Part shown: one piece after another, positions 6,481 to 64,000 of the stretch
How positions within the stretch are numbered: position 1 is the stretch's first letter
Layout: each line of letters opens with the position of its first letter
Assembly (NCBI RefSeq): GCF_964355755.1
Contig: NC_092676.1
Coordinates: forward strand, 20,540,871 to 20,604,870
Direction: 5' to 3'
Origin: Antedon mediterranea
Taxonomy: Eukaryota; Animalia; Echinodermata
Length of the DNA stretch: 64,000 nucleotides
Notes under the pieces: generated by a model
Database searches by the model: none
Told to the model about the DNA's origin: nothing
Seen by the model: the letters and a program-made list of their open reading frames with translations, nothing else
Program-made: the position numbers and the translations under genes

Positions 6481-6951
6481 TGTGGCGATGTCATAAATAG
6501 TGTAAAACTACTATACTTTATTACTCAGTTTTTAGATATATAACATAATATAATTATTACAATTTGATCAGACGTTTTTTCTAGTCTGTATGTTAAATGT
6601 AGTGATAGAATATACATTACTAGTAGTGGTTAGTTTTACAGTCTTTTTTAAAGCTAGGCCTAATTTTCGAGTATCACCATCCATGCTGCTGACATGCTGG
6701 CGTGTTAGTGTTGCATGCGTGATGTGGAGGAGACACAATAGGAGTCGATTGGTCCATTCGTACCATTACTGTACACATGTACATGATTGTAACATGTTCC
6801 TGTATAAATCCAGAGGTTTATATTATTTTAATATAAGTGTATTCATTCATTTTTTTCAGATGTTTAGTAATTTATATTATCTATTTTATTTAATAATTAA
6901 TAAATTATATAAATATTTAATTAATATATTGTTTTATATTATATAAAATAA

Positions 6952-9769
<2,818 letters not shown>

Positions 9770-32650: not shown

Positions 32651-34444
32651 ATGCCATCTGTGTTATCAACTCTACCCAAGGAATATGGCTACGTTCTAGC
32701 AACTGGAACAGCTAGCTATCTGATGTTGCAATATATGGTCATGAAAGTGGTGATGGCAAGAAAGAAGTACAAGGTCAAAGTAAGAAATTTGTCATAACAC
32801 AATCTCATCTGCGGTCCGTAGTACTGGTCATAATCCTGATTAACTTTCCCCAATATTAAGTCCATTATAATTTATATGCATGAGGTAATGCCTGTTTCGA
32901 AGTCTCAAAACAAACGTAGGCCCCAACTATAATAAACTGAATTGACTGGTCGACAAACACATAAATTAAACGCATCACCACAATAATTGTTTGGTGTCGC
33001 CGAAGCTTCCATTTATTTGTTGTATTGGCTACACCCAGCACGAAGCTCAATTGTCGACTGGCCCGCACAACAACCTGTGCAATGTTTATATATAGCTAAT
33101 TTGCATAAAGGTGTAACAAAGAACAATACAGTATGCTCTATTGCACACTGATGTATTCACCTTCTGAACAATGCCTGTATGCAAATATTATTGACCAACT
33201 CAATGTCTGCACACATTCTGTGCCTCTAGATAGTTTCTTTCTATTGTTATAAATTCAATTAATATATGTATTATTTTTAACAGTATCCTATTATGTACAG
33301 TGAAGACCAGCCTGTGTTCAACTGTGTTCAACGAGTACATGCCAACACGTAAGTATATATCCACCAACAGGTTAGAAAATAAAGAATGCTTACAGATAGC
33401 AAGGAAATCTAACAACAGTACACTGAGCTCGCCTTGCAAAGATAGGAACTCGTAACAGTCTTTTGATCTTATGTCTGGCTGCGACAAATACCAACAGTAC
33501 TGTACTGTACATATTCTCCGCAATGCGTGGTTTCTGTTAAGAGCCGTAGAACTGATCGTGTCTTAGCCACAGACAAACCCTTTGATCTCTGGAGCTCATC
33601 ATCCTGTTGTTAATTGTTATGACTGTTGGATTTGAATCAAAGACCCACAAATAATAATTGATCTGATCACTTTTATTATTAAATTATTTTCTTTTATTTT
33701 TAGACTTGAAAGTTATCCGTCTTTCATATTCTTCTTGTTAGTAAGCGGTCTTCGCTACCCAGTAAGTATTGCTTATTCAAATTCGTTTAAAGACATTTTC
33801 TTTGTCCAAATGTATAGATACAACATTACAATAGCAGTTCCCCCCTCACCCCCATGGTTCCACAATTTAAATAACACTGTTTTTTTTCGCAGCGTGCTGC
33901 TTCTGGATGTGGAATGCTGTGGATTGCAAGCCGTTTCTTTTATTCATTTGGTTATTCTACTGGAAGTAAGTACTTAGACTATAAGCTAGGCTTAATGTTT
34001 TTACTAGCACTTTCACTGCTGGCCTTGAGTGATTAATCAACATAATGACAAAGAGGTTGTGAAATGTGGTGTGCACTGCATTTATAAATACAAGAGTAGG
34101 CCTACTTGTACCCAAAGGACTCAATTAGGGGCTTACTTACCATGACCAACGAATGCAAACTCGTTCTTCCTTATAGCGAACTGCATTCACCCACCAAATT
34201 TGAAGACTGTGAGACCCCTAGTCTTTGAATAAAGCGAGACAGACATGTAGATATTTGATGAATTATAGTAAAGTACACACAGATTTTAAGTAAAGTTTAG
34301 ATCGAGTTAAGTATGGTATGTTCTTGTTTCTTTATAGATCCACAGAAACGTCATTATGGGAGCTTTGGATTCTTTCCTTATGCCGCTCTTTTTGGCATGA
34401 CAATCAGGATGACTGGAGAACATCTTGGTTGGTGGGGATGTTAA
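32651..34444 (+). CDS. MGST3: Microsomal glutathione S-transferase 3 (MAPEG family)
   Basis: Exons 32651-32779 (MPSVLSTLPKEYGYV...ARKKYKVK), 33284-33348 (YPIMYSEDQPVFNCVQRVHANT), 33704-33761 (LESYP), 33893-33965 (RFFYSFGYSTG), 34338-34444 (PQKRHYGSFG...WWGC*). It contains the FNCxQRxHxNTLE signature. The ORF track misses it because the exons are short. Confidence 0.93.
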
Positions 34445-34891
34445 CAATCCTGTTTAATACTATCATGTCTGATATTTTATATAGTTCAGGAAAATATGTA
34501 ATTGTACAAATGGGTGTGTGATATCAATATAACAAAGACCAAAGCTATAACAATTTTCTATTTTGTGATTAATGTTTTTGGATTGCAAAAACATTTAATT
34601 CAGTTTCTCCCTTGATTATCTTTTACATTAATGGCGATGTATATTTTTTAATAAACAATGATGATTATACAGTTTTCAAACAATTTCATATTGTTGGTTT
34701 GCTAATTTTAATATTTTTACTTTTGTTTTTTACTATATTTTAATCAGTTTTAATCAAGTGTAAATTTTGTATTCAATAATTTAGATAAGAGTTGGTCGTT
34801 CCAAAGATATTTATGGCATCTTTGTTTCTGAACTGCATTAAGTACTATACTGTACAATATGTATACATAATTTACCCCTTCTAGATTAGAC

Positions 34892-35215
34892 AGAGGTACC
34901 TTATTTTGTAGATCTAATAGGAGGTACCTTAGTTTCTTAGAACTAATAGAAAAGGTACCTTATTTTCGTAGATCTAATAGGAGGTACCTTATTTTCGTAG
35001 ATCTAATAGAAAAGCTAACTACCTTTATACATCTAAACTTGCTTGTGTCATGGAGGACCACAAAACTTGGAAATCTAGCTATGCTGATGTCTGATTGATG
35101 AAGATGGTCGACTGCGGTCGATATATGATATGATAACTACCTTATTTTCGTATATCTAATAGAAAAGGTACCTTAGTTTCGTTGATCTAATAAGGGAGAA
35201 CTTTATTTTAGATAT
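34892..35215. repeat. Short minisatellite (~29-33 bp units)
   Basis: AGGTACCTTATTTTCGTAGATCTAATAG occurs 4 times, then after a ~110-bp interruption 2-3 more times. Confidence 0.75.
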
Positions 35216-35782
35216 AAATAGAGTAATGAAGTATCAACAAATATGTATTATTTTATTGATGATTAAGTAATAAACCAAAATGAAAACCAATTTTTTTTCT
35301 GTTTTTTCAAATGTGCACATTAGACTGCTCACCCCTGACGAGAGTGAGAGTACATAATAATAGTACTTTAATTATCTTGTCTGCTTAACGGATTGACATA
35401 AACAGTCTACATATTGATTAGTTATTTCAAATTTTACTTCTTGGAAGAAATTTAAACAAAACATTGACATTCTTTAATTACTGATAAGGTATTGGTTTCA
35501 CATTTTATGCTAGTACAGTAGTGGGAACTTAGTGGATAGCCGACTTTGTTGCAATTGTTGACTGTGACCCCTTCCATATTGTACAGACATTGTTTTCCTT
35601 GTTATGCTTCACTGGTTCACAAGGCTTCTAATACTTCCTCATTCATACAAACAAAGAAATCATTGAACCAAGATATGACAATATTGTACCAGATTTTACT
35701 ACACTTAATAATAAGCCATAATTATTTCCGGGAGGAAATTTGAGACTATGTCCTATACTGTAGTGGTATAATTGTGTTAAGT

Positions 35783-38700
35783 ATGTTACCATCATGTTTG
35801 TTACTAAATACATGTTGTTACCAGGTGCTATTACTTACTATAATCATAGTTTATGCTACAACCGGTGAACTTCTAGGTCAACGAGGACCGAATCTGACTG
35901 TTACTGACGTAAATGACTGGCCCAGGGCTAGTGAATTTTTTAACAACTTCGGATTGCCATCTAAACCTTTAGTTGCAAGAGGAGTCGGAGTAAAATCGCC
36001 TGCGTTTAGGCTATGGACAGACGAATATTTGAGGCAACATGTTGACAATGAAATGATTGTTACTGTGGAGAGGGAGAAGAAAGAGGACAGGGAAAATGGC
36101 ATCGCTGAAGGGCTCACATTTGACGAATTCTTGTCAAGGTATCAGGAAGAACAAATGTATATGGTACAAGATATTCCAGAAACGCTAAAGTAAATTACAT
36201 GTTGTTTCCTATTTCTAGTTGAGAAAAAAAAGAGTCATTTCTACTATTAATCACATAGTAGGCCTATATAGAAATTAGAGACATAGTATAAATTAGGAAA
36301 TTTAGTTAATTAAGACGATTTTATTGCAATAACTCGACCATTATTCAAAATAACAATAGAAATTCCTCATTGAATCCATGCAGTAGAACTACTAGAACAA
36401 TAGGCCTTTTCCAGTACAGTATTTGGAAATATCAGCTTACATTGATTATCCGATCAAGCACAGTAAAAAAACATTCATGTACAACAGAAAGTTATTAAAA
36501 ATTCAGCTAAATTTGATAAAAGTCTAATAATATCCTTGAAGAAACTTTTTATTTTTGCGCTTATTATTATAAACATATTTTTGTCTTACCTTAGGAAAGA
36601 TGTGATTGTACCTGCACCTCTTCAGTGTCACGTAATGAGTGATAGTATAGCAATATCGGTAATATTTTAACCTGCTAATATTACTAAATAATCATAACAA
36701 TTTATAACGATTTACCATAGTTCCAGTTTCTTTGTTCGATTTTCATGAGATTTTCCAATATCGAAGAAAGAGTATGCCTAATACAAAAAGTAACATTTGT
36801 TGTGACACGCTTTTGCACCGTAGACACAATTCACATTTTCTCGATTTAAACATTGCTTTTAAACTTTAGTTGATGTGGTTTAGTAGTGGTGGTACATCGT
36901 CTGTCCTGCATATTGATTCAATGGATAACATAAACTGTGTGTTATCAGGCCATAAGCATGTAGTACTCATTGATAGAAAATATTCAAATAAAGTAAGTAG
37001 ACAAACATAATCTGAACTGTTTAAAAACCACGTTTAATGTTCTCTTCATTCAATTTTGTTTTTCTAAACAAAATATATACGTTAATGCTTATTGTGTCAT
37101 TTTTTCATAGCGTGTATGTTTTGTAAATTGTTTTGCCTGCAAAATAAATGGTAATTATTTGATTTTCCTACAGGTGTCTTTAGACCATCCTTCTGAAAAC
37201 TATTGTGGTGTGGATGTAGACAGGTAAGATTTTGAAATAAATAATTACTACATTTAGGCATAGTATTTACATTAGAGCCTAGCTAAATAGGATGAGGTGA
37301 CTAAAAAAACCCCACACTACCTAATACCAGCGATAAAGTCTTCTAAACACTAATAATTCATACTGTACGTTGTCAATCATAATAAAAAGTACCGATTTTA
37401 CATTATTTCCAAGTGTTGACTTTGATAAGTATCCTGGTCTTCTTGAAGTTGAATACTATCACGTTGATTTACATCCAGGTGATTGTTTGTTCATCCCATA
37501 TCGATGGTAAGTAATGAGATAATCCTACAAACAACTACTTCAAGAAATTGTCATTCATTAATAAACATCAGTAGGCGTTGGCTGAATGTACTGTCCTATG
37601 TACCGATTCTTCAGCTGCTGTCCCTAGGTAGATTTTAACTTACTATTGACAGTCAACTAAGTACGAGTCTATGTGTATTAAGTACTTTATTACAAAGCAA
37701 GTATTCGGAAATGGACCCAATTGCTGCCTAACTAAATGTCCAGGCCTGAAGTGTCCATCCATCGTGCTAAAATAAACAGGGTCAGAATGTATGTTACTGA
37801 AACCTGAAGTTTGAGTTTGCTACTGATTAGGAACATACCACTTCTTCTTAGGTTTCACCAGGTACGTTCTTCTCAAGAAAGAAACATCGCAGTCAACGTA
37901 TGGTGGAAACATTATACAATGCAGAAACAAAACTTTAGTCAGTGTTTGGATATTCCACCAGAAGAACTTCAAACTTTCGATAAATTCACGTTGGCGGGAA
38001 TGGATAATACGTTTGACGAATTGGATTTAATCAGGTAACTTTCTTTGTAGATAGGAATTTTGATGGTTTGCTTGGCGAAATAATATAATAATATAAAGTA
38101 AAATAAAAAACAATAACATACCGGTACATGGTGTACCACAAACTCATATCATAGTCGTTTACCCTTTCTTTGATGTAATCAAGTTGCTTTTCGACGACCC
38201 CTGGACCTTCTGACTATTGGCAATGTACAACATACCGTATAATATAGTTACACTCAACGTAAACTAACCAATGAGTTTTCATTTCTTAGGGATCACGTGT
38301 TATCGGTAACCAGAAACTATGATGGTCCAATGGAGTATGAAGATTTTAAAGTATCGATCTTTAAACCACCTCCCGACGAGACGGGCAGAGAAATATTTTT
38401 CACGATGTCAGAAGAGGTACGCTAACAATTCTCATTTAAACCTCGAAAGAATTTTTAATTTACATTCTCACCATAGGACATAATTATTTCAGGATCAAAT
38501 TTTTGGGTACACACTATTCTATTGTATTCTATTTATTTTGTATGTCGCACTACCAAGAACAGAGCACCTACAATATTTAAATTATGTTGATACAAAGAAA
38601 AGTCTTAAGATTATGATTAAATATAGGTGCTGACTTCGTTTCTCGCAAATCAACAGGAATCATGTTCCAGATGTGCGTAGCGGTGACAGAAAACGCGTTA

Positions 38701-39547: not shown

Positions 39548-39895
39548 CAACTTATTTTGAGTGAAAAATGAGTCGAAGAACAGATAAACTGGCAAGCCAA
39601 GTATTTATTTTTCTAAATTGAAATACATTACTTTCTGGGAAACAATTATTTCCCCTATCTATAACATAAGAAACTATTTTTATTATTTGTCGAACAAAAT
39701 TAAATGCTGAAAGACAACTGATAATACACAACAGCATTTGTGAATGGTTTCAGTGTCAACCTAATTTTAGAGATATTTTAAAAATATAAATAATCATACA
39801 TGGTGACATTTTTTGTTAACATTACCCATCTTAAATTAGAAATACATAGAAACGCTATCTAATAATATAAAATAGTCATGAATCTGTACATTTGA

Positions 39896-42800
39896 CTATG
39901 CTAAATGTTGTATATTGGGCACATATCCAAAACAAGATACATCTACAACTGTAGTTATCGATATCTTTTTCTGTTGCATTGGTGAGCCCCATTTTATGTA
40001 GTCAGATGAATAGTTATGCTTAGTGTCTTGACATGGATTTTGCAATGTTTTGACAATAGGAGGTATTCTGATTGTTGCGTATGTATAGCCAGCTGTATCG
40101 TCTACCGATAGTATATTTGACGCAATTGAAACGTGTGACGCCGCAGTTGGGGATATTTTAGATGATTTAGATAATACAGATGACGGCGTTACCTGTGACG
40201 ATAATAGTATTTGTGACGATATTTGTGACGCACTGGACCGTCTTTGTGACGCATACGACACTTCTGGGGGAGATGACGGTGCGTGTGAGAAAGATACGGG
40301 AGAGTACTGCACTGCACTTGAAACACCAGTTGTTGTGGATGGCGTATCTGCCGTTGCAAATGACTTTGACTGTAACGGTAACTCCGGTAAACTTGGCCGT
40401 GTTCTTAACTCGTCAAATATCTCCTTTTCTCTCGGAGCTATTGTGTATGAGTCTTCATTGCCATATTTTGCTTTCCATGCTAACAGCTGTATACGTGCAT
40501 AAATAAAAGAACAAAACACGTTTTTTAATTCTAGTTATTTTCTGTGTCTGTAAACGTTTAAAAAGTTTGATAGTGTGCGTTTTAAACTCTTTCAAACATT
40601 TTATATACCTTATTGTTAGGTAATCATAATCTAGTATAGTAAATATTGTATGTACATAATATGTATTCTTAATCAATTCCTTTCTGTTTTAACCCAATCT
40701 CAATATAGGTCAATAAAACATTTTTTTTAATAATCATTATCTTTATCATCATCAGCATCATTATCATCATCATATCGTCGTCATCATCTTATTTAGCATC
40801 AACACCATCATCATCATCTTCTTTATCATTAGGACCATCATCATCCTTATTATCATCATCATAATTCAATTTTATTCCATGTTAAGAAATAGAGCACTAC
40901 GCCATTGGTAATCATTGAAACCGCTGGGAAACAAATCATAATATAGGAAAGTGCACTATTGAGTACATTCGCTATCTATACTACTTAATTCAGCATTCAG
41001 AATGGTATTTTGTCGTAATTTGTCAGTAGTAAATATAGTAAACACTATCAATAAAGGTAAACATTAATACAATTATTCAGACATGCCAACCTTCAATGAG
41101 GCTTTATTTTTTCGTCTTTCTTTTTTACTGTCATATATTCTTAATATACATACAATACTTCCTCCTACTCTTTGTAGTCAAGTTGACGTAAAGGTAACGG
41201 AAGCTTTTGTTTGTATCGTATCTTAATTGCGTCATTCTTAATTTATGTTACTATAATGTACTGAATATTGAGAATTGTAATTCAATGTAAGAGGTGTACC
41301 TTTTCTGCAACGTTTTGCGATATGATTTGATCTTCTTGCCATTTCTTGCGACACCAGCGGCTTACCGTACCGACAACTAAAGACACGGCTAACACAGCAA
41401 AGATAATGTAGATGATCTTATCCAAATATCTTGTTGATTTTGTTGTATTACTTATTGCTTGTTCTGGAATTAAAATGTTTTCTTGATGTTTGTATATGTC
41501 TTTTTTTAATTAATCCAGTTTATTTCCACTGTTAATTTTAAACACTATCGATTATATATTATTGATATTTTCTTCAGAAATATAACATGAAATGTATAAG
41601 CAATAAAACAATGCATATTGTCAATTTAAGAACAATCTTTATTGTCTAATAATCAAATTAGATAATGACACATTTAAAATTCACATAATTTGAACCTGCA
41701 ACCACCCGCTAGTAGCGACAATCATGCAGTATCGCGTTCTGACAGCAACATTTTCAACGCTTTTTTGCCACTCGGAAGTTTGTGATTCACCTTTACCATC
41801 AACAAACCTTGGTTCGAATCGAACCTCAGTGTGGTCGTTTAAATTCTGTTCCGGTGAGCTCTCATGGGAGATTCAAGGTGCTGGAGAGAACGGGGCGATG
41901 TAAAATGGTTCCCCTGCTTTTCTTCTTTTTAGTTTATCTTATGATATTTTATGGATCATTTTTGTGTGTAAAGAGCTTAGAAATATTTTATTATTTAGAG
42001 GGCTAGGAGTTGAGAGAGAGAGAGAATATTTTAGGAGTAGGGTGTTATTTGGCCATGTTGCTGTCAACCGACACGATCCTGCAGGATATTTGTCGCTACA
42101 CATACGATAATTGGCTGCTACTACAGGTCCTATATTTTGGAATATTGAAGAAACAAATTTAACTAATTTCATAAGAGACATGGCTTTAACATAAAAAAAA
42201 CCAGTTAAATTGCTCGTTTGCTGCAAATGAGGTAGAATTTTAAAGAGACTTAAATTTGAAGAAGAACTGCATTATTAACCTGTAGTTGTAACTGCTATCA
42301 CTGTGCTTCTGGTTTGTTTTTGATTATACCCGCCATACGTAGAGTAAGCTTCAATCTGGTATTTTGTGTCAGGTATCAGGTCGTCAAATTTAAATATTGA
42401 CTTTCCGTGTTTTAGTACCTATGAATGATAACGACAACAGTGGAGTATTTACATTCTAACTAACGTATCAGTTATACAAGCAGAAGGTTCCCAGTTCGAA
42501 TCTCGGTTAGAGCAGCTTTTTCTCATCCTTATAGATTTCCTTATCTTTATCGTATATCTATGATTTTCAGTATATCACCGAGCGGTTTAGAAATTGCGAA
42601 TTCTGATACTTTTGCATTTAATTCCGATTTCCTTTTTGAACTCAATGTTGCTATTAGTAACAATCTTTTTTTTAACATTTAAAATAAATGTATCTGCTAA
42701 TTACTCTGTTATTTCTGTATTTATCTTTTATGTTGGCTAATTAAATTTCAATGATTAACAATGTTGCGTAATAAATTTCCATAGCTTAATGATTTGTTTA

Positions 42801-44630
42801 TGTCTAAAGCTCTGTCTACACTATCAAACTTTATGTGAAAAAAAAATTTGGGCATATCACTACCATATTTAGACACATCACATTTTTTTGGTAGTGTAGA
42901 CAAAGCTTTACAGTGCATATTTTCATTTATTTATAAACGGCGTATTTACCTCTGTGTCTTCTGTTTGGTTTGATCTGTTCAGAAATAGGTAAGATGTGAT
43001 CCCGTACATATTTATATCCGGGTCATTCATCCTCATTCTCTCTTTACTGTTTTCCTTGATGTAAGGTGTCAGCGGATACACAATTTCACCAGATATGTTC
43101 GTACTTCCTTTGGAGTTGATCATAATTTTTAGTGGTCCCATTAAAGCTACCAAAAAATTGTAATTGTTTTACTAAAATAATAAGTGATAATCATTAAATG
43201 ATCAATTAATTAAGACTTTCCTATAAGGACATTCTGGAAAATATAAATGCATTCAACTACTAGTAATTATGTCAGGATTTCAGATCATGCTTTGGGTTGA
43301 ATGTCTGAATTCTATACTAATACGCAGAAATACTTTTGAGAAAATCAGCGACCAATTCTAGGAAATGCTTATTTCTTATTATACGTCAGTCGAAAGCTCC
43401 AAGCTAAAAGATACCTTACCTTCTGCCAAAATATCTTGTGTTGCTATACTTGACTCACTTTCGTTGCCTCTTGCGTAAGCCGTAACTTTAACATATCCGT
43501 TTTGTATAGACCTACTACGAGAATACTCGACTGTCCCAAAGACTTCAATGTGACATTGAAGCTGACGTATATTCTGACATCCACTTACTGGTTTCCAACT
43601 TAAACAATGATAATACAACCTCTATTAAGGAGATACTTTCGTAACCCTGTCAAGTGTTTCCTTAATAATGGATGCCCCCTGGTTAGTGGTTAGCAGTGTC
43701 GGAATGTATACATTATTTCCACCACCCGTTCTTTTTACGAGAAAGTGTCCCCTTAGTAGAAGTGTTGCCTAAACTGCTTATTTAATTATTTATTTCATTT
43801 TTTTTGTCCAAAAAGCAAACAAATCTACCCCAAGAATTGTAAAAGAGCTAACATATTCAGTTCAAATTATACCCTAAAAAAGGTAACAAGTACAAAAATA
43901 CAAAAATAATATACCTGTTGTAATATTCCCCGGATTCTACCGAATACGTCACATCTGTCATATTGCCAATATCCTCAGGAGGCAGCCATGATACCGTACT
44001 GTTCAAGTTAAATGTTTTTATTGTCACATTTCGTGGTTTGCTTATACCTGTCAACATCCATTTAACATGTGAAATGATTACAAAATTAAATTTTCAATGC
44101 GTAAATAAGCAAGTCAGGCTGTGATACTCAAATGCTCCTACCCAGGTCATCCACCCTTTTACTATATATTTGGTATAAATATAGTCACTGTTTTGACGAT
44201 ATGTTACGCGTTTTAATATACAATGTAAAAAAATAGGAACATTCAAAGTGGGATTGACTCTTAAGCTCTGTCTACTCTATCAAACTAGTTTGACAAAAAA
44301 AAATTGTGATGTGCCCAAATATGGCAGTGGTATGCCCAAACATGTAGTGATATGACATCATCATGCCCTTATATGGGCATTTTTGTTGGTCACATCAAGT
44401 TTGATAATGTAAACAAGGCTTTACCAGTTATTTTAGGCAGATGTCCGTAATTTTATATAATCATTTATATCGAGACATTTATGGGCACTTATGCTTCAAA
44501 ATAATGAAAACCGAAGGTTCCCAAAATACACAATGAAAAATGTAATAAAAAACAATGAATTACCTTCTGAGTTGCAGTTAAATACGATGAAAATAAGCAA
44601 CACTATGATATGCATTGACCACGATTCCAT
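39896..44630 (-). CDS. Class II helical cytokine receptor-like type I membrane protein (~489 aa; two FN3-type domains, TM, Ser-rich tail)
   Basis: Exons 44630-44564 (signal peptide), 44047-43915 (KPRNVTIKTFNLNSTVSWLPP...VTYSV), 43598-43420 (WKPVSGCQNIRQLQC), 43146-42950 (LMGP...PLTP), 42418-42280 (DDLIPDTKY), 41463-41300 (TM IIYIIFAVLAVSLVVGTV), 40486-39896. These join into one open frame of 1470 nt with intron phases 1-2-1-0-1-0. Confidence 0.82.
40730..40863. repeat. Degenerate (CAT)n microsatellite
   Basis: CATCATCAT runs in intron 6 of the receptor gene. Confidence 0.8.
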
Positions 44631-44668
44631 GTTTCAGAACTAAATAAAAATCAATAACTATAATGTTA

Positions 44669-44805
44669 AGCTCTGTCTACACTATCACACTTTATGTGAC
44701 AAAAAAAGTAATGCGTCCACATATGGACATGATGATGTCATATCACTATTATATTTGGGCAGATCACATTTTTTGTCACACTAGTTTGATAGTGTAGACA
44801 GAGCT
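44669..44805. mobile_element. Palindromic PIF/Harbinger-like MITE (best copy); family members at ~560-672, ~10860-10975, ~21310-21395, ~27498-27560, 42808-42907, 44264-44420, ~56250-56392
   Basis: TTA|AGCTCTGTCTACACTATCA ... TGATAGTGTAGACAGAGCT|TTA gives a perfect 19-bp TIR and a 3-bp TWA target duplication. Confidence 0.85.
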
Positions 44806-45683
44806 TTATCACAGTAAAATCTACTTTTTCTTGTTATATTATGATTAAATATTTCAACAACAAAAAAAGATTGGTGACCAGTAACCCTATAATTCACAAG
44901 ATTTTCTTTGTTTGTTTCGAGTTTGCTGGAATCTTAACAATTGAATATAATAGTCGAATACATCCGCACAGAATGTTAGGCAGATTTAAAAACCTTAAAA
45001 ATAAAAAAAGAAAAAAGAAAAAAAAGAAGAAAAACCAAGCTTAACTGACGACAAACTACATGGATAATTGGAACACAGCTGGAAGAAACACAAACTATCC
45101 GGAGATTTATTTATTAAAATGTAATTGGTAAATGAAAAATATGTTTTACGCGCACGCAAATTATGCGTTGTGCGCAGTAAAAATACTTACTTTTTGACTA
45201 CGATAGGCATGCTTTAATAGAAGTAATGTGTTACTGTTTCTCCATTGTGTGTTTTATATTGAATAGAACGAGTAAAAGAAAAATGAAACGACTATTTGTA
45301 AAAAAGATGATCAATGGTTGATGAATATGCATATACTTTAAAAGTTAATTAAAAAAGTTAAATCATAACAAACCGAAATATAAAAGCAATTAAATATGAA
45401 ACACAAAGGCCGTTAATGCATTGCGAAGTTAATAAATTGTGTTTTTATCTTCTTTCGACTCATTTACTTTGTCGGTTTTAAGTTATGTGCATTATTAATT
45501 ATCAGTTTCGATTGATTGTGATGAGTTGGTCGAGGTCAAAGTAATGGGGCTACCAGCTATACAAAAAAACATGACACGATGAGAATATATCGCGTGTATT
45601 TGTACTGTGTTTAAAATTAATCAGGTCACACATTTTGCTGTGTCATGTTTTATATAGAGATTCATATTAGCCAATGTTCGCGT

Positions 45684-45964
45684 GTCGCACGCATTTAACA
45701 CGCGATGCAACTGTAAATGCGTTTGACTACCGCTGGACAGATTGAAATCAAATAACGGTATGCGTAATAAAGCCATGTTTCGTAGAACTTTCAGTCAATT
45801 CTGCTCACTTTTTGTGACCGGCAGTATCATTCGTTTTCGTCTTTAATATAATCTGGATAGCCTATTGGTGTATACTTAAAACATCTTTAAACAATAAACA
45901 ATTAATGTTTACAGTCCATAGTCCTATCACATTGATGTTTTCTCCAAGCATACTTCATTATGTA
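45684..45964 (+). repeat. ~280-bp direct repeat near both ends of the tRNA array (second copy 48360-48636)
   Basis: GTCGCACGC.TTTAACAC.CGATGCAACTGTAAATGCG...CATAC...ATGTA occurs twice, each time followed by a deleted tRNA copy. Confidence 0.85.
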
Positions 45965-46028
45965 GTCATGATGGCCGAGCGGTCGCAGTCTACTCTTGTA
46001 GGCGTGGGTTTGAATCCCACTTCTGACA
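45965..46028 (+). pseudogene. tRNA-Leu(CAG) pseudogene, 20-nt internal deletion
   Basis: GGTC is joined to GCAGTC and the anticodon arm is lost. Confidence 0.85.
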
Positions 46029-46478
46029 TTACTCTTTTCGTATTTTACTTAAACAGGATATTGTATTGTCCCCAAAAAACATGAAAAATGAAGATTAATT
46101 AAATCAGACTTTGAATAGGTTATTTTGTAGTTTTAATAAAGTTCTTTTCTTCTCATATAAACTGACAAAATAAATTGTCAAATTCAATCAAAAACCCATT
46201 GGCTGGCAGTCAATTTGACTATTTTATGCTTTAAATTACAGTTTTTTTTTTCAGGTAAATAATTTTTCGATTCAATTTTTATTCAAAGTGGATAACTATT
46301 GTGTGTCATTAAAATGGCATATTAAAAAAATGTAAACAATTATTTTTTTAGGGGAACAATACCTCTTTTAAGAAATATTTATTATAGGCAGCCATCTGAA
46401 TCATTTATTCCATTCAGAGTTCGTAAGCTTTACCATATGTTGTCCTCACAAAAACTGTTTTACATATTATTGGCCTAA

Positions 46479-46555
46479 GTCAAGATGGCCGAGCGGTCTA
46501 AGGCAGATCGCAGAGTCTACTCTTATATGCGTGGGTTCGAATCCCACTTCTAACA
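46479..46555 (+). pseudogene. tRNA-Leu(CAG) pseudogene, ~9-nt deletion plus substitutions
   Basis: TAAGGC|AGATCGCAG junction. Confidence 0.85.
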
Positions 46556-46723
46556 ATACTCTTTTCGTATTATTTTTACGTTATTTTGCATATTAAATTT
46601 GGCTTAAAACAAGGATTTTAGAATAAAGTCTCTATTATAGATACCCACCTGAATAAGTGTTTTACGTTCACAGTTCATATAGGCCTTTCCATCTATTGCC
46701 CTCATAAAAAATTTGAAGATATA

Positions 46724-46794
46724 GTCAGGATGGCCGAGTGGTCTAAGGTCGCAGTCTACTGTTGTAGGCGTGGGTTCGAATCCCACTTCTGACT
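46724..46794 (+). pseudogene. tRNA-Leu(CAG) pseudogene, 13-nt deletion
   Basis: TAAGG|TCGCAG junction (AGG microhomology). Confidence 0.88.
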
Positions 46795-47129
46795 TAGTTT
46801 CACATTGAGTTTTTCTAATTACACACTAATCAATCATGTTGTTAATTCACTGGTATGGTATTCTTAAACAGTATTTATTTAGGCACATCTGATTCAACCT
46901 CAAATTTCTAATGAAAATGTTTAATTTATTCAGTTTAAACTTTTGAAACATTTAGGCTTTTCCATGTTGATGTATTTCCGCACAAAAATACTAAGCATGT
47001 GGTCAGGATGGCCGAGAGGTCTAAGGCAAAATTAAAGTCTATATAATGAATATCCACGAGAATCAATTTACGTTCACAGTTCATATAGGCCTTGCCATCT
47101 ATTACCCTAACAAACAATTTGAACATATA

Positions 47130-47206
47130 GTCAGGATGGCCGAGTGGTCTAAGGTTCAGGTCGCAGTCTACTCTTGTAGGCGTGGGTTCGAATCCTACTT
47201 CTGACA
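47130..47206 (+). pseudogene. tRNA-Leu(CAG) pseudogene, 7-nt deletion
   Basis: TAAGG|TTCAGG junction; the 5' strand of the anticodon stem is lost. Confidence 0.88.
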
Positions 47207-47371
47207 TAGTTCTTTTGTATTTTACGCTATTTTACATATTATATTTGACTTAAAACAAAGATTTTGAAATTAAAGTCTATATAATGAATATCCACCAGAA
47301 TCAATTTACGTTCACAGTTCATATAGGCCTTGCCATCTATTACCCTAACAAACAATTTTAACATACATATA

Positions 47372-47455
47372 GTCAGGATGGCCGAGTGGTCTAAGGCGCT
47401 GCGTTCAGGTCGCAGTCTACTCTTGTAGGCGTGGGTTCGAATCCCACTTCTGACA
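47372..47455 (+). tRNA. tRNA-Leu(CAG)
   Basis: 84-nt GTCAGGATGGCCGAGTGGTCTAAGGCGCTGCGTTCAGGTCGCAG...GGTTCGAATCCCACTTCTGACA with a full cloverleaf, long variable arm and a downstream T-run. Confidence 0.96.
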
Positions 47456-47618
47456 TTATTCTTTTCGTATTTTACGCTATTTTACATATTATATTTTGAC
47501 TTAAAACAAAGATTTTGAAATTAAAGTCTATATAATGAATATCCACCAGAATCAATTTACGTTCACAGTTCATATAGGCCTTGCCATCTATTACCCTAAC
47601 AAACAATTTGAACATATA

Positions 47619-47702
47619 GTCAGGATGGCCGAGTGGTCTAAGGCGCTGCGTTCAGGTCGCAGTCTACACTTGTAGGCGTGGGTTCGAATCCCACTTCTGA
47701 CA
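47619..47702 (+). tRNA. tRNA-Leu(CAG)
   Basis: Intact copy 247 bp after the previous one, with one variable-loop change. Confidence 0.95.
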
Positions 47703-47865
47703 TTATTCTTTTCGTATTTTACGCTATTTTACATATTATATTTTGACTTAAAACAAAGATTTTGAAATTAAAGTCTATATAATGAATATCCACCAGAATC
47801 AATTTACGTTCACAGTTCATATAGGCCTTGCCATCTATTGCCCTCATAAACAATTTGAAGATATA

Positions 47866-47949
47866 GTCAGGATGGCCGAGTGGTCTAAGGCGCTGCGTTC
47901 AGGTCGCAGTCTACTCTTGTAGGCGTGGGTTCGAATCCCACTTCTGACA
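47866..47949 (+). tRNA. tRNA-Leu(CAG)
   Basis: Intact copy, 247-bp period. Confidence 0.96.
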
Positions 47950-48115
47950 TAGTTCTTTTGTATTTTACGCTATTTTACATATTATATTTGACTTAAAACA
48001 AAGATTTTGAAATTAAAGTCTATATAATGAATATCCACCAGAATCAATTTACGTTTCACAGTTCATATAGGCCTTGCCATCTATTACCCTAACAAACAAT
48101 TTTAACATACATATA

Positions 48116-48199
48116 GTCAGGATGGCCGAGTGGCCTAAGGCGCTGCGTTCAGGTCGCAGTCTACTCTTGTAGGCGTGGGTTCGATTCCCACTTCCGACA
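48116..48199 (+). tRNA. tRNA-Leu(CAG), full length but variant (A4:C69 acceptor mismatch); possibly a pseudogene
   Basis: Three substitutions relative to neighbours: TGGCCTAAG, TTCGATTCC and TTCCGACA. Confidence 0.75.
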
Positions 48200-48636
48200 T
48201 TTTTCTTTTCGTATTTTACGCTATTTTACATATTATATTTGACTTAAAACAAAGGTTTTAAAGTTAAAGTCTTTATTATAAATATCCACTTCAATCAATT
48301 TACGTTCACAGTTCATATAGGCCTTACCATCTATTACCCCCACAAACATTTTGACTATAGTCGCACGCGTTTAACACACGATGCAACTGTAAATGCGTTT
48401 GACAACCGCTGGACAGATTGAAATCAAATAACGGTATGCGCAATAAAGCTATGTTTTGTAGAATTTTCAGTCAATTGTGGTCACTTTTTGTGACCGGCAG
48501 TATCATTTGTTTTCGTCTTTAATATAATCTGGATAGCCTATTGGTGTATACTTAAAACAATAATAATAAATAATTAATGTTTACAGTCCATAGTCCTATC
48601 ACATTGATGTTTTCTCCCAGCATACGTTAACATGTA

Positions 48637-48694
48637 GTCAGGTTGCCCGAACGGTCTACTCTCGTAGGCGTGGGTTCGAATCCCACTTCTGACA
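48637..48694 (+). pseudogene. tRNA-Leu(CAG) pseudogene, 26-nt deletion
   Basis: GGTCTA|CTC junction (GTCTA microhomology). Confidence 0.82.
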
Positions 48695-50661
48695 TTTTTT
48701 TCATATTCAGTTTCTTTTGCTAATTTTGCTAAATCTTACGCTATTTTACATATTATATTTGTGTCTTATTTTTTATAAATACGTTCACAGTTCATATAGT
48801 CAGGATGTTTTCATATTGAGTTTTGCTAATTACACATTAATCAATTATGGTATATTCACCATGCTATCGGGTATTATTCACTAGTATGGTATTCTTAAAC
48901 AGTATATTTATTTTAGGCACATCGTCAAATGTTCTAACCTGTTGATGTAGTTCTCTACCAATCTGACTCTATTTATACTGCATAACAACAATTTTACTTT
49001 ATCAGTTATATTTGTTGAATGTTCAAACAGGACTTTACCGGATGGTCAGACAGAAGGGTTGAACCATGGACTCCGTGGTCTGTGTATCTATATTATATCT
49101 GTATCAGATCTCTAAAATATCAATATCTGTGATCTGTAAATACGCACAGCAGTAGTAGGCCTTAGTCTAATTTTCTAGAGAACACAGCATTTTTCTAGTC
49201 GTGTTTAAATCATGATCTCAATACAATGTATTGGTCAATATTTAATTTTAAATTTATAGTGAGAAGAAGTAACATTTCTGTATCATTGCTTCGAGTGTGA
49301 TAGGAGTGTATTATTCATGTAAAACAACTAATGTTTACGTATGCCTAAAGCATTTTGTCTCGTGAAAATTAGCCATCGAAATTTACGAAAAAGATAAAAA
49401 AGCAAAATAATGATTATTTTTAGTCATATTAATTGGCACCAAGTATGACTTCACTTAATTATGTAGCCCTTGGAGTTCACTCGAGATGCACGCGCGAATA
49501 GCTGTGTTTGATGGATAGGATGTTTGAATATAGTACGGTATCTGACTACAATACTAATGAGGCAATTCATCCCCCGATTAATTCGTATGCATAGGTCTGT
49601 CACTACATAATCACACAATTACTGTAATCTGAAAAACTTATGAACCTTTGGAACATAAGTTAAGGGCAATGTTTTGTTTATCATTGTGCTTAAATGAAGA
49701 TTTAATAAGCTGGAAAATCCAAGTTTTGGGTGTTGCTCCAAAATGTGTTCCTCCGTGGTTTTAGTTATCAAAACTGAAACTGAGCAACTTCACAGCTTTA
49801 AGTCAATTAACTAGTTGTTACGATGTATACCAACCTAAATCTAGAGGAAAGAAAATATACAGTGACGTAGGCCTATCCCTATTTAAGATTTAATCTGTGA
49901 AAACATTTATAAAAGCTAATTTCACTTGATTTTGGTATGGGTGTCTTTCATGTTTATTACCCCAGTCGTACAGAATAATGATTGATAATGACGTAAGTTA
50001 TCATCCACAACACCATTATCATCATTGACACGGTTGACATTATCAATGTTTCAGTGCTGAAGTTACAATATATGAAGTGCCTAGGTGAAAATTGAAGCCT
50101 TACAAACCAGTTACTTTTTTTCTAAGGTGCAACAACAATATTTTAGAATATTTTTGAATTTGGATTACACAAAACCATTTTTTATAAGATTTTATTCTAA
50201 ATTTTGATTGATAAATCCGATCCCGGTGCTAAATCGCTAAAATTATCTCGTAGATATTGAACTTTACAGGACAAGCACAAGATAAGACAGTGGCTTGTAA
50301 GAGATGTCTCTCTGCTCATTATCAGCACATTTTAATCTTTCTAGTTAATATTTTGCTAAATAGAGATTTGCTACCTACAAATCAGAGGTGTTAATCAGAT
50401 CACGTGACCCAAAAATTACCTGGCGTACCCCGTCTCTGTACTAGGTACGCAATATCAAAGTGAACTATAACTTATGCTCGTTACAGATTGTTCCGATACC
50501 GACAGACTCTTACGTATATTATACAGTGGTCGGGTTTCGGTTTTAAAATCCTTCTCTTTTTAAGAAAAGGAGTGTTGTATATTTGTAAATTAGCATAATA
50601 AGTTAAATACTGTACAGATTAAGTTTTTTTTGTAATTGGAATACGAACCCATGTGTCCACA

Positions 50662-53600
50662 ATGGCACTCAGTAAGGTTGTATTTCTGATAGGTTTGCTG
50701 TCCTGTTTAACAGGTAAGTTACTCCATGAGTTATGTAATCTTAATTCACATTTATTCCGTTTGCATATATATTGTAAATGTTTTTTGTTGTTCCTATATT
50801 AAATATTCTTTGTAACAATCATATTATATTTGTTTGAAACAAAAGTTTCAGTGGTATAATTATACCATACATTTGGATATCATTATTACCGAAAGTGATA
50901 TAGGTTACTAAGAGAAGAGAGAATTGAGTAATGGGTCATTATTAAACACGCGATTTAGCAATAATGGTTGTATCGGTTTTTAGATGTAAGAATTATTATA
51001 TAAAATAATTTAAAGCTAATTTTGTTTTTAGACCATTTTAATATCATAGTACCGTAGTTCACAAACAATTATATACATGATAAAATCCTAATTTAAAGAA
51101 GAAGAAAAAAAGCCCACTGTATGGAAGTCGTGAAAATTAACAGTTTTTTATGCCTTTCTTTCTACTATTTTCATTCATTTCGTTTTTCAAAAAGTGAATA
51201 ACTATAAAATTTCCTATTCAAAATTTGATTTGTTTTCATCTTTAAGATTTATTATCGGGTGCGTTTAATGCTTATAATTATGGAATTTAACTATTAAATG
51301 TTTTGTAGCTCTCCCGATATTAGGAATATGCCATGTATTATCTATAGAGAGTAAACATAAAGGTTACACAAACCTATATAAATATTAGATATTAAAATTG
51401 TTATCATTTTCCACGTGTCATCCTCATGGCTACCACTTTAGTTTAAATAGGCCCTGTATAAAATGTTCCCGGTTGATGGACAGAACTTAAAACCTAAATA
51501 CAAGTTTTAAATGTCACGTTTTCAGATTCCCTTATGCTTTGTGAGGTTAATTAGATTAAATCATTTGCTCTCTGTTCCCTAAAAAAAAATTAAATTATTA
51601 GGCCCATATCAAAGAAATTGTTGGTATTAATTTTATATACTTTTTCAAATCTTTATAATGTACATTTTTTAAATGTCTTTTTGTTTGTTTTGTATCTCAT
51701 GAATGTACTTTTCTGATTGTCATTTTTGTATTTTAAATTGATAATAAAGGGCCCCTGGATATCAAGGCCCCTTGATATCAGGGCCCCTGGATAACCAGCT
51801 CCCCTGCGAGGGAACGGAAAGGGTAATCCTCTATAAACATTGTTGAAAATTTTTTTTTTTCAGAAATCAATGGTCAGTTTGACTGTACGTTTGAAAATGG
51901 TTTTTGTTCTTGGCAACAACTAAGAGATGATGTGTTTGATTGGACTAGGCTTAGAGGACCTTCAACGACTGGGACAACAGGACCATCGGTGGATCATACG
52001 TTAGGAAGTATATACAATTTCATTCTTTTTAATTTTATATAAAAAGGGAGTATGACTTATTCGTGGTGATGATGATTATTATTATATAAAGAAAATTAAA
52101 CAGTGAAGCAATAACTGCAGTGTAGTACATAAAAACAATTGTGTACAACCAAAGCATTCTAACAACAGGACACTGAGCTCACCTTGTCAAGAACTTGTAA
52201 CAGTCCTTTGATCTTATATCTGGCTGCGACAAATACCAACAGTTTGTATTATGCACATATTCTCCGTGGCGCGCGGTGTATTAATCGGATATAGAATTAA
52301 TTCTGTCGCAGCCACAGATAAACCGTTTCATCTCATGTTGTTAAATTGCCTTGGTACAACTGGCTACACCCAATGTATCTTGGTGTCAACAATTGTAGGC
52401 CTATTATTGTTTAATATTTAAATAACATATAATACTGTACAGATGATGAAAATAAATTGACGATAATGATAACAATGATTATGTATAATCTATTTAAATT
52501 AATATAACATTTTTCAATTCTAAATTATCCACAGCAAGTAGTGGTTATTACCTCTACATAGAAGCATCATCACCGCGTGTCCTAGGCGACACGGCCAGAA
52601 TTCTAGGCCCCTCAGTGACATTAAACCAGGGAGGCGTTAAATGCGTTCGTTTCTGGCACCATAGCTATGGTTCAAACATAGGGACATTCAATATGTATGT
52701 GTCATCGGATGGTGCTAAAGCGAATCTTGGCTCACCAGTGTTCACATTTACCGGAACTCAGGGTGACAACTGGATTCTGGGACAAGTGGACATTGATGAG
52801 GCGACGTATGGTGGTCAGTTCAAAGTAGTGTTTGAAGGAGTTGTTGGTAACGGCATCAATGGAGACATTGCCCTGGATGATTTTCAGATATTTTCTGGAT
52901 TATGCCCTCAAAGTAAGTAACCGATATCTGCGTATGATGCGCGTATGCTATTCATTAAACCCAGTAAACCTATTTTAGAAAAACGGCAGAGCATTAAAAC
53001 AATGATACATTTTTATCTTCGATTTAAATTATTTCCTTTAAAAATATGATATACTTTTATAGTTAGATAATTTTATCTAATTTAGTTTTAATTTGAGTTA
53101 TTCATATAAGAGTTAGGATTGCCATTGTCATCTTAACTTCCAGTGTGACTATTCATAAGACAAACATAATATTTCTTCACGAAGACGACTAACAGTCGTG
53201 TTGGTAGTCTACGAGAACGATTCATGTGTCGTGAGAGACGTTTACGGAGACCTGAGGTTTCCTTTCAAAAAGGAGAGTGTGTCTACGTTGGGAACTACTG
53301 TATAGCGTGTGTACTAAATGTAGGGAACTCATGAAATTTCCTTAACATTTTCAAATTACAGTTGTCGTTACACCAGCTCCTAGTGACAGTCCATCATTTG
53401 CTCAATGTGACTTTGAAGATCCACAAATTTGTAACTTTGTGCAAGACACGACGGATGATTTTGATTGGACGAGAGCTTCTGGTGGAACAGATTCTTCTGG
53501 TACGGGCCCAACATATGATCACACATATGGAACTTCAAAAGGTTAGTTCATCTATAACTATCAATTTTTGTATCTTCTTATAAGAATTATGATATTTTAA

Positions 53601-62600: not shown

Positions 62601-63980
62601 TCTTTCTTCATTCTTAGTTGTTGCTACGCTAGCTCCAACAGCCTTGCCATTCTCTGTAACCTGTGACTTTGAGTCTGAACTCTTATGTGGATTCCGTCAG
62701 AGTGCTGGTGATGATTTTGATTGGACCAGAGGCTATGGTGCAACAACTTCAACAGATACAGGTCCAGCCAACGATCACACTTATGGAACTGGATATGGTA
62801 CGTTTGTGAGAATCATATCTGTACTACCTATGTTATTATTCTAGAATGGACACCCATTCTAGAATACTCAAAGAAAAATGGAGTAGTTATAAGGTCACTG
62901 TAAGGTCTACTGAAAAAAGAAGATACACCAACTACTGTAGCAACAAACAAGCTGGCATAGATATTTTTAGTTTAAAGGCCAGGTGCGGGCACAAAATTTC
63001 TATTGATCATACATTCCAATAATCATCGATCTATAGTTTCCCCTATGTTTCATCATTTTTGTGATTTTATTTGTGTTACACAAGCTTGTTGAAAAAAAGC
63101 ACTTTCTTATCAGTGGGGGGATAGTTCAAATTACACAGTAAAATCTCTATTCTTTTGTACACAAATTATGTAAGTAGAGAGGCATTTTAAAAAGCTATGA
63201 AAACTAATTGGTGTGGTAAAAAATGTTATCGGATGACTAAATATAGGTAATATAACTTGAATATTACATTTCTGGTATTTTTATTCAACTTCAGATTTTT
63301 ATTTTCATGCTATAGCAAAAATTATCCACTGTATATCCACCATCTTTTTTCACCTTCTTGGGAGTCACCAGACATGTTATTACATTAGGTTAACTACCTA
63401 ACTACTGAAAAAAAGTCTTTCTGGTTTTTATGGAAGAATTTTGCCAACTTTTGTATTTGACCATATTAAAGGAAATTCATGTTTTTTCGTCTTGATTTCT
63501 GTTACAAATATTTGATTTATGTACAATTAACCAGATATTATATTTAAAATTCATGCCTGTACCTGAGCTTTAAGTGATCTTAAATATGCTTTACTAAACA
63601 AATGTCGTTTTGTTTTAATATTATTTCAGGCCATTACATGTACATAGAAACATCAACACCAAGAACAAATGGTGACGTAGCTCAGCTATACTCACCTACT
63701 TACAAGGCCAGAGCAGGCAGTGTTTGCCTGGAGTTCTGGTACCATATGTATGGGCCTAACATTGGTTCTCTGAATATCTACCAACAAAAGAATGGTATCG
63801 TCTCATCAGTCCTCTGGTCGAAGTCATCCAATGAAGGGATTATATGGAACATAGATCAATTGAGTCTTACGGCTGATGCAGACTTTCAAGTGGTATTTGA
63901 AGGAATTACAGGGAATGGTGCAAGAGGTGATATTGCGATCGATGATGTTACTATCAGAGAGGGCGCTTGTCCAAATTCAG
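50662..63980 (+). CDS. Secreted multi-MAM-domain protein (MALRD1/apical endosomal glycoprotein-like), 5' part; at least 8 MAM domains in the window
   Basis: Signal exon 50662-50713 ([17 protein letters not shown]). Repeated C[DTN]FE...DDFDW...GP..DHT.G / Y[ML]YIE.S / C..F[WY]YHM.G...G.L.V / VVFEG....GDIA[IL]DD modules at ~51864-52912, 53362-54136, 55035-55993, 56497-57934, 58335-60112, 60446-61179, 61273-62281, 62618-63980. The gene continues beyond the window. Confidence 0.92.
59223..59545. mobile_element. Non-autonomous TIR element with 7-bp TSD (P-superfamily-like)
   Basis: Perfect 32-bp TIR CAAAGAACTTATAACACAAGAATCTCCTGTTC. ATATAAT is duplicated on both sides and the interior is GC-richer. 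Confidence 0.8.
62976..63569 (+). mobile_element. Kolobok-like non-autonomous DNA element, copy 2 (about 50 bp longer)
   Basis: TTAA flanks, with the same termini and body as 27897-28438. Confidence 0.85.
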
Positions 63981-64000
63981 GTTAGTTATAGTACAGTTGG

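Follow-up and report, generated by a model that had tools for sequence, protein, structure and literature searches.

Class II receptors and their relatives outside jawed vertebrates

Class II receptors are defined by four conserved extracellular cysteines in the accessible part of PMC3210801, and class I receptors by a cysteine motif of their own and WSXWS in that of PMC1963337. IL20RA (PDB 4doh_R), IFNLR1 (5t5w/3og4/9bpu), and IFN-upsilon R1 (PMC8863823, available in part) are vertebrate class II receptors with one D200 module; human IFNAR1 (PDB 3s98, 8y31, 3se3) carries two. Excerpts of PMC8863823 give IFN receptor genes, IFN-upsilon R1 included, the intron phases 1-2-1-0-1-0 and describe a role for the PxxL box1. 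Section 7 of a preprint (10.64898/2026.05.30.728932) gives 1-2-1-0-1 for all lamprey CRFBs. Lamprey CRFB7/14 feature Interfer-bind and PxxL, and the latter is needed for STAT1 phosphorylation by these receptors, according to the sections available of the same preprint. Tissue factor (F3), which lends its name to the Pfam family Tissue_fac, is a class II module without cytokine signaling in the accessible text of PMC1963337.

Class II-type receptors outside jawed vertebrates are known in Ciona, amphioxus, and lamprey (10.64898/2026.08.17.745176, 10.64898/2026.05.30.728932, and PMC3210801, each in excerpt). Their hosts are chordates, and these CRFBs are set against the crinoid protein here by description. 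Amphioxus BjCRFB1/2 have four and three FN3 domains (10.64898/2026.08.17.745176). Interferons and class II receptors arose in basal chordates, according to two 2026 preprints (10.64898/2026.08.17.745176; 10.64898/2026.05.30.728932). In the portions available, one of them reports that two sea urchins yielded no secreted protein with an IFN fold, and a 2012 paper (PMC3296744) that there is no evident system of cytokine receptor signaling in the sea urchin. Oyster CgIFNR-3 is another invertebrate protein termed an IFN receptor, and the accessible text of PMC8218723 names it 'cytokine receptor-like 3'. We read it—by name, not by sequence—as of the CLF-3/CRLF3 type, which PMC1963337, in excerpt, ties to class I. 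No echinoderm class II receptor surfaced in the literature searched; key reviews and supplements may mention non-chordate ones. Pre-vertebrate class II receptors are already published (Ciona, amphioxus), and the novelty here is the non-chordate host.

The crinoid gene and its reading frame

The gene lies on the minus strand of the window, i.e., the whole 64-kb stretch of DNA that was analyzed. The host is a crinoid: the adjoining WDR3 gene matches Antedon mediterranea, in agreement with the invertebrate host presumed in a preliminary description. Splicing the minus-strand exons in silico from 44630 to 39896 yields seven exons, a 1470-nt CDS, and a protein of 489 aa with one stop codon, the terminal one, and so reproduces the exon number, protein length, and phases 1-2-1-0-1-0 proposed before. 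All six introns are GT-AG at the predicted junctions. The predicted protein runs from a signal peptide through two FN3-like domains to a single transmembrane helix and ends in a 216-aa tail, with exons and features as follows:

44564..44630, minus strand: exon 1, start codon ATG and a hydrophobic stretch resembling a signal peptide (aa 1-22; 19-mer Kyte-Doolittle average reaching 1.77, the call being one of hydropathy only), then a phase 1 intron
43915..44047, minus strand: exon 2, N-terminal half of FN3 domain 1 (aa 23-67; Tissue_fac and PDB matches), then a phase 2 intron
43420..43598, minus strand: exon 3, C-terminal half of domain 1 (aa 67-127; Tissue_fac match), then a phase 1 intron
43553..43597, minus strand: W68-x5-C74-x7-C82 motif with a predicted domain-1 disulfide, spacing as in IFNAR1 and IL20RA
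42950..43146, minus strand: exon 4, probable N-terminal half of domain 2 (aa 127-192; from position, length, and phase), then a phase 0 intron
42280..42418, minus strand: exon 5, C-terminal half of domain 2 (aa 193-239; weak fn3 match) without the class II Cys pair, then a phase 1 intron
41300..41463, minus strand: exon 6, a short stalk leading to the transmembrane helix, with a basic stop-transfer segment and the first part of the tail behind it, then a phase 0 intron
41363..41416, minus strand: predicted transmembrane helix in exon 6 (aa 255-272; hydropathy peak 2.58 at aa 255-273)
39896..40486, minus strand: exon 7, remainder of the 216-aa cytoplasmic tail and stop codon, read from the sequence
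39679..39684, minus strand: AATAAA, candidate poly(A) signal about 215 nt past the stop codon (weak, being common in 33% GC DNA)

A second AATAAA is located at 39604. Upstream, an acceptor-like AG lies 9 nt before the ATG, and a non-coding exon may therefore precede exon 1; a high-copy repeat lies about 35 nt upstream of the ATG. The phase string equals those published for class II receptor genes, as had been claimed (PMC8863823 and 10.64898/2026.05.30.728932, both in part). All six donors follow an exon-side AG, compared with 7.1% of GT dinucleotides across the region (p of about 1e-7, an upper bound on the surprise since the sites were chosen by frame). The pyrimidine tracts of the acceptors are weak at exon 2 (41%) and exon 6 (47%).

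Allelic variation bears on exons 5-7, the scope of the silent-site test. Of 16 exonic variants, 11 are silent and five are replacements (p 1e-4 to 7e-4 vs 22-27% expected); exon 5 accounts for nine of them (seven silent) and exon 7 for five (three silent). None of the 10 indels in the gene is exonic, and the splice dinucleotides are untouched by variants.

The spliced protein found no paralogue in the 64 kb by tblastn. A scan for upstream ISRE, GAS, and NF-kB sites yielded one GAS-like word in 2 kb compared with 0.5 expected, which was rejected as chance. The X1 contigs were rejected as RNA: they read through intron 6, with no splice joint among the rows listed. Because they cross this intron unspliced, they behave as DNA and are uninformative as to expression. 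In word-based protein searches, exon 3 drew 12 candidates and exon 6 drew 24, with nothing at E<=10—blanks that count as weak evidence by the searches' own account. The protein collection queried with these exons, which includes A. mediterranea WDR3, apparently lacks the gene; this absence suggests that such genes are overlooked by annotation. Scanning metagenomes with exon 3 produced 597 pattern matches, none of them confirmed.

Extracellular domains and cytoplasmic tail

Exon 2 matches Tissue_fac with 25.6 bits (E 1.2e-5, profile 23-58) and fn3 with 14.8 bits. Exon 3 matches Tissue_fac with 14.7 bits (E 0.028, profile 65-106) and does not match fn3. Each half-domain score is below the Pfam cut-off of 27 bits, and 25.6 + 14.7 is to be read as an arithmetic sum, not as one search. 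The two exons are collinear on Tissue_fac, with a gap of 6 positions in the profile compared with 5 residues in the protein. In PDB, exon 2 matches IL20RA first (E 0.0026), close to myosin-binding protein C (E 0.0045), and IFNLR1 (E 0.027-0.033) and titin are also among its matches. The three matches of exon 3 are all IFNAR1 (E 0.4-0.8, not significant alone). Tissue factor is not among the PDB matches of exons 2 and 3.

The domain-1 motifs of the preliminary description are all found in the 489-aa translation: P-x-N-V, S-W-x-P-P, V-T-Y-S-V, and W68-x3-SGCQNI-x4-C82 with its C-x7-C. WSXWS is absent from the 489 aa, likewise as described, and the class I pattern CX(9-10)CXWX(26-32)CX(10-15)C is absent from domain 1. 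The SGCQNI previously attributed to human IFNAR1 is identical in the PDB IFNAR1 chains at the aligned place (six consecutive residues within W-x3-SGCQNI-x4-C); the match spans 18 residues at E 0.4 and thus does not show orthology. The W-x5-C-x7-C spacing is common to both IFNAR1 D200 modules and IL20RA, and the N-I after the first Cys also occurs in both proteins. The pattern W-x(3-5)-GC-x7-C occurs once in six frames of the 64 kb. C74 and C82 are the only cysteines of the mature ectodomain, i.e., two of the four family cysteines.

Generic FN3 proteins served as controls. Searched by HMMER with exon 2, a set of 1.84 billion representatives returned 90 matches, all multi-repeat proteins with summed scores and none an orthologue or class II seed; the 16 scanned by Pfam are generic FN3 proteins. 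Six of these 16 also match Tissue_fac, five above the cut-off, with fn3 ahead by at least 88 bits in all six. Exon 3 is unmatched by all 90 (<=2.4 bits). Because Tissue_fac outranks fn3 in the crinoid exons and the order is reversed in all six controls matching it, domain 1 reads as class II-type, an assignment supported by the Pfam ranking and the PDB matches.

Domain 2 is less telling. Exon 5 matches fn3 with 14.4 bits (E 0.044, profile 51-80) and nothing in PDB; exon 4 has no Pfam or PDB match at E<=10, and neither exon, scanned singly, matches Interfer-bind at E<=10. Of the two class II Pfam families proposed for a check, Tissue_fac is the one matched by exons scanned singly (2 and 3). Domain 2 has no Cys and hence no second class II pair, and PxxL box1 occurs nowhere in the 489 aa. 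Exon 6 has no meaningful PDB match. The tail—that of tissue factor is very short compared with its 216 aa—features nine Tyr, with YASQ at 371, GYVP at 480, and GYVPNIQ near the C terminus, and a Ser/Thr/Pro-rich middle (46% in aa 331-425). GYxP has an uncorrected p of 0.017; YxxQ and ITIM-like motifs, which are at chance level (p about 0.47), were discarded as evidence. The missing Cys pair, the missing PxxL, and GYVPNIQ had all been noted before and stand in the translation.

The crinoid protein thus resembles the vertebrate receptors with one D200 module in its predicted layout (a signal peptide and two FN3 domains ahead of a transmembrane helix and a long tail), its phases 1-2-1-0-1-0, the similarity of domain 1, the W-x5-C-x7-C spacing, and the lack of WSXWS. 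It differs from them by lacking the second Cys pair and PxxL box1, with single exons that miss Interfer-bind; from lamprey CRFB7/14 by lacking PxxL; and from IFNAR1 by having one D200 module instead of two.

Interpretation and meaning for the family

The gene quite probably shares its ancestry with the class II D200 module. On a slight balance of probability, the intact reading frame encodes a divergent class II receptor homologue, a long-tailed chain that would bind a secreted helical cytokine. Two of four cysteines, no PxxL, and exons 4 and 5, each scanned singly, without an Interfer-bind or PDB match count against this explanation, as do the half-domain scores below the Pfam cut-off and the sea urchin preprint without an IFN-fold ligand; we class the protein as class II-like and divergent rather than canonical. 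Our best guess is an orphan long-tailed cytokine-receptor chain. In such a chain, the two FN3 domains would present a ligand site at their elbow, and ligand binding would join the chain to a partner. JAK may sit on the partner, or on this chain at a motif other than PxxL within the first ~55 residues of the tail, which are charged; its phosphorylation of tail tyrosines, with Y371 and Y481 as candidates, would let STAT dock there. For this scheme, drawn from family knowledge, we put the chances at even. Of the pre-vertebrate class II cytokine/JAK-STAT proposal made earlier, the invertebrate host, the class II-type domain 1, and the phases are supported; the gene may belong to a working system of this kind, but PxxL is absent and the tail Tyr motifs are mostly at chance level.

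Unlikely, yet the most serious of the alternatives, is a true class II homologue that is not coupled to JAK: a decoy, an accessory chain, a tissue-factor-like cofactor, or a non-cytokine receptor with other tail signaling. The lack of PxxL and of the domain-2 Cys pair would fit, as would the chance-level tail motifs, the precedent of tissue factor (PMC1963337, in part), and the sea urchin preprint without an IFN-fold ligand, although that screen, in the portion available, covers two sea urchins and no crinoid. A pure decoy would not need a tail with nine tyrosines that appears constrained (three of five variants silent, no indels), and the full seven-exon receptor layout is retained, including the final phase-0 intron. 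Clearly less probable is that the class II likeness of domain 1 arose by chance or convergence, either in a generic membrane protein with two FN3 domains or in a class I-type D200 receptor that has eroded. The controls above the Tissue_fac cut-off, the modest half-domain E-values, titin and myosin-binding protein C among the exon 2 matches, and the blanks of exons 4 and 5 point that way. FN3 modules commonly have phase-1 flanks, and 1-2-1-0-1 is typical of class I receptors too, so that the pattern marks the D200 module and not class II alone. However, Tissue_fac never leads fn3 in the controls, two independent exons find class II chains in PDB, the cysteine spacing and N-I are those of IFNAR1 and IL20RA, and class I motifs are absent.

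It is very improbable that the gene is silent or died recently, or that the exon chain is partly wrong. The unmatched exons 3 and 6 in a collection that includes A. mediterranea gene models, the weak pyrimidine tracts, and the repeat upstream of the ATG would agree with this, but such blanks weigh little, 1470 nt run without stops or frameshifts, and AG|GT holds at every donor. The excess of silent variants in exons 5-7, the unvaried splice dinucleotides, and the absence of exonic indels also count against it.

The wider reading of the divergent receptor is tentative and rather doubtful: echinoderms may have a working class II cytokine system in which this gene is the signaling chain for an interferon/IL-10-like cytokine, with JAK coupling without PxxL. 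The significance is bounded by a single gene, known here from its sequence. If it is a true class II-type receptor, the receptor module would date to at least the deuterostome ancestor, and the family would predate chordates. If the echinoderm system is real as well, the interferon/IL-10 axis would stem from the deuterostome ancestor or earlier, not from basal chordates. With the crinoid gene, a ligand search gains a concrete bait, and whether the receptor preceded its cytokine becomes directly testable.

Gene model and predicted protein

The receptor gene is a predicted seven-exon, minus-strand gene and is real as a gene model in the DNA sequence.

Predicted exons of the receptor gene
44630–44564, minus, exon 1
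44047–43915, minus, exon 2
43598–43420, minus, exon 3
43146–42950, minus, exon 4
42418–42280, minus, exon 5
41463–41300, minus, exon 6
40486–39896, minus, exon 7

The six introns are all GT–AG, have lengths of 516, 316, 273, 531, 816, and 813 nt and show the phases 1-2-1-0-1-0. Five of these lengths (516, 273, 531, 816, and 813) are divisible by three, probably by chance. The spliced model of 1470 nt encodes 489 residues with a single, terminal stop; the sequence bears out the gene model of the preliminary description. The protein features a hydrophobic N terminus (residues 1–22); an ectodomain of ~215 residues that carries eight N-glycosylation sequons as far as the stalk; a predicted transmembrane segment (residues 255–272); and a tail of 216 residues. 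The mature ectodomain carries two cysteines, at 74 and 82, and a motif scan of the 489 residues found no WSXWS, class I cysteine motif, or PxxL (the box1 motif for JAK).

AG precedes the donor GT in 6/6 introns compared with 7.1% of the regional GT dinucleotides. Allelic variants within the gene span—those beyond it being excluded—were drawn from contigs of five runs (two samples, two studies). Among the exonic substitutions, 11 of 16 are silent against an expected 22–27% (binomial p 1e-4 to 7e-4), with the sites linked to one another and four exonic sites stemming from one depth-5 contig alone. No exon frame or splice dinucleotide is hit by any of the 10 indels within the gene or by any substitution listed; two intronic variant rows fall within a high-copy repeat. 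All 16 exonic variants sit in exons 5–7, and exons 1–4 carry none. Exon 5 (42280–42418) has nine allelic variants in 139 nt and exons 2–4 (42950–44047, 509 nt) none in the runs covering them, which may reflect sampling, as one sample alone spans exons 2–4 fully.

Host and genomic neighbourhood

A WDR3 exon 20 kb from the receptor gene is 100% identical to 'WD repeat-containing protein 3-like [Antedon mediterranea]'; identity drops to 74–84% in the next matches listed. The whole-protein WDR3 alignment has 898 identical positions out of 905; the seven mismatches arise where the alignment runs beyond a splice site. This identifies the host as the feather star Antedon (Echinodermata, Crinoidea), either A. 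mediterranea itself or a form that WDR3 does not distinguish from it, and the invertebrate origin suspected earlier holds.

Neighbouring features
35–5200, minus, ankyrin-repeat gene at the window start
6950–9770, plus, TFB1M-like exons, recognised by eye from the translation
10669–31062, minus, WDR3 gene, exons identical to the Antedon mediterranea record
33875–38600, plus, MAPEG and Cupin_8 neighbour region
33875–34033, plus, MAPEG-family exon
35744–38035, plus, Cupin_8/JmjC-like gene with a signal-peptide-like start, converging on the receptor 3' end
44664–44808, 44259–44405, and 42803–42910, three copies of a MITE-like ~140-bp element with terminal inverted repeats
45900–48760, plus, tandem array of ~247-bp units
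51827–64000, plus, large multi-exon MAM-domain repeat gene (two exons by Pfam, further ORFs MAM-like)

The receptor neighbours offer no immune-cluster context: Cupin_8 and MAPEG lie on one side, the tRNA-Leu array and the MAM-repeat gene on the other. The array lies upstream of the receptor, starting ~1.3 kb from its ATG, and contains four tRNA-Leu(CAG) genes called by ARAGORN at 47372–48199, plus several degenerate copies; the tRNA-Val(TAC) called at 46723 appears to be a degraded version of the array unit. The MITE-like copies lie ~35 nt upstream of the ATG, in intron 1, and in intron 4; the element has very high depth in DNA runs. Two WDR3 introns hold long ORFs, 17188–19815 (875 aa) and 25637–27115 (492 aa), which we take to resemble LINE reverse transcriptases.

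Domain similarity and proposed class

Profile and PDB searches were run one exon at a time, each exon of the two FN3-like domains encoding half a domain. For domain 1, exon 2 matches the Pfam profile Tissue_fac with 25.6 bits (E 1.2e-5, profile 23–58) and fn3 lower, with 14.8; exon 3 matches Tissue_fac alone (14.7 bits, E 0.028, profile 65–106), and the two Tissue_fac matches run collinearly and abut to within one residue. For domain 2, neither exon taken singly gave a family match: exon 4 matches nothing in Pfam and exon 5 only weakly fn3. As a control, 16 of 90 FN3-repeat proteins retrieved with exon 2 were scanned; Tissue_fac matched six, five above the cut-off, with an fn3 lead of at least 88 bits every time. 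A Tissue_fac match alone is thus not diagnostic, and it is the ranking against fn3 that counts. In a search of 177,635 PDB sequences, the best exon 2 match is IL20RA (E 0.0026), followed by myosin-binding protein C (0.0045); IFNLR1 takes places five to seven. Exon 3 has three matches, all IFNAR1 (E 0.4–0.8), aligned on W-x3-SGCQNI-x4-C; the 90 generic FN3 proteins include no match to it. The W-x5-C-x7-C spacing also occurs in the second IFNAR1 module and in IL20RA.

Class I receptors also have the phases 1-2-1-0-1, and FN3 modules are often flanked by phase-1 introns, so that the phases favour a receptor with the two-FN3 D200 module more than class II specifically. The gene for IFN-upsilon R1, like other genes of IFN receptors, has the entire string 1-2-1-0-1-0 (PMC8863823), and all lamprey class II receptor family members (CRFBs) match its first five phases (preprint 10.64898/2026.05.30.728932).

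The class II assignment proposed from sequence alone was thus largely right for domain 1, by the Tissue_fac ranking and the IL20RA and IFNAR1 matches, and for the gene layout; it falls short in two features. The receptor lacks two of the four family cysteines (definition in PMC3210801) and PxxL, on which STAT1 phosphorylation by lamprey CRFB7 and CRFB14 depends (preprint 10.64898/2026.05.30.728932). Because these two defining features were tested and found absent, it is described here not as a canonical member but as class II-like and divergent. It probably descends from the same ancestor as the class II D200 module.

No orthologue was found: a full HMMER search with exon 2 returned multi-repeat proteins only, and exons 3 and 6 gave nothing in word-based searches, although the collection includes A. 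mediterranea models. The gene thus appears to be unannotated, such blanks being weak evidence.

Proposed function and place among class II receptors

Slightly more likely than not, the receptor is an orphan long-tailed chain of a cytokine receptor. A secreted helical cytokine would bind at the elbow between its two FN3 domains; the chain would pair with a second one; and a JAK, either partner-supplied or held via a non-PxxL motif, would phosphorylate tyrosines in the tail. All steps beyond domain-1 homology are drawn from the receptor family. The main rival, a class II homologue acting as a decoy, accessory chain, or tissue-factor-like cofactor, is possible at distinctly lower probability. In the tail, YxxQ (Y371) and an ITIM-like word (Y354) occur at chance level in shuffles, and the uncorrected p for GYxP at 480 is 0.017.

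A generic or class I-derived FN3 pair is unlikely: the intron phases and the second-ranked myosin-binding protein C would suit it, the IFNAR1 matches of exon 3 and the missing class I motifs would not. Least likely is a dead or mis-modelled gene, for which the blank orthologue searches speak and against which the silent-variant excess and intact frame stand.

Class II receptors outside jawed vertebrates have already been published for Ciona and amphioxus (PMC3210801), with functional tests of the amphioxus receptors in preprint 10.64898/2026.08.17.745176, and for lamprey in preprint 10.64898/2026.05.30.728932. The lamprey study found no secreted protein with an IFN fold in a tunicate or in either of two sea urchins, and PMC3296744 describes the sea urchin as having no apparent cytokine receptor signalling system; a term search of a 2026 sea cucumber immunity review (PMC13673367) gave no instance of 'cytokine receptor', 'JAK', or 'IL-10'. 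The oyster 'IFN receptor' is termed cytokine receptor-like 3 (PMC8218723), and the portions of PMC5332411, PMC13337447, PMC2654155, and PMC3877593 added nothing on non-chordate class II receptors. Literature searches, mostly at the level of listings, turned up no class II receptor described from an echinoderm; for other invertebrates, automatically assigned database names along the lines of 'interferon or interleukin receptor-like' may already exist. The crinoid receptor is a class II-like gene in a phylum for which the literature searched held no report, and it bears on the currently argued question of class II receptor origin.
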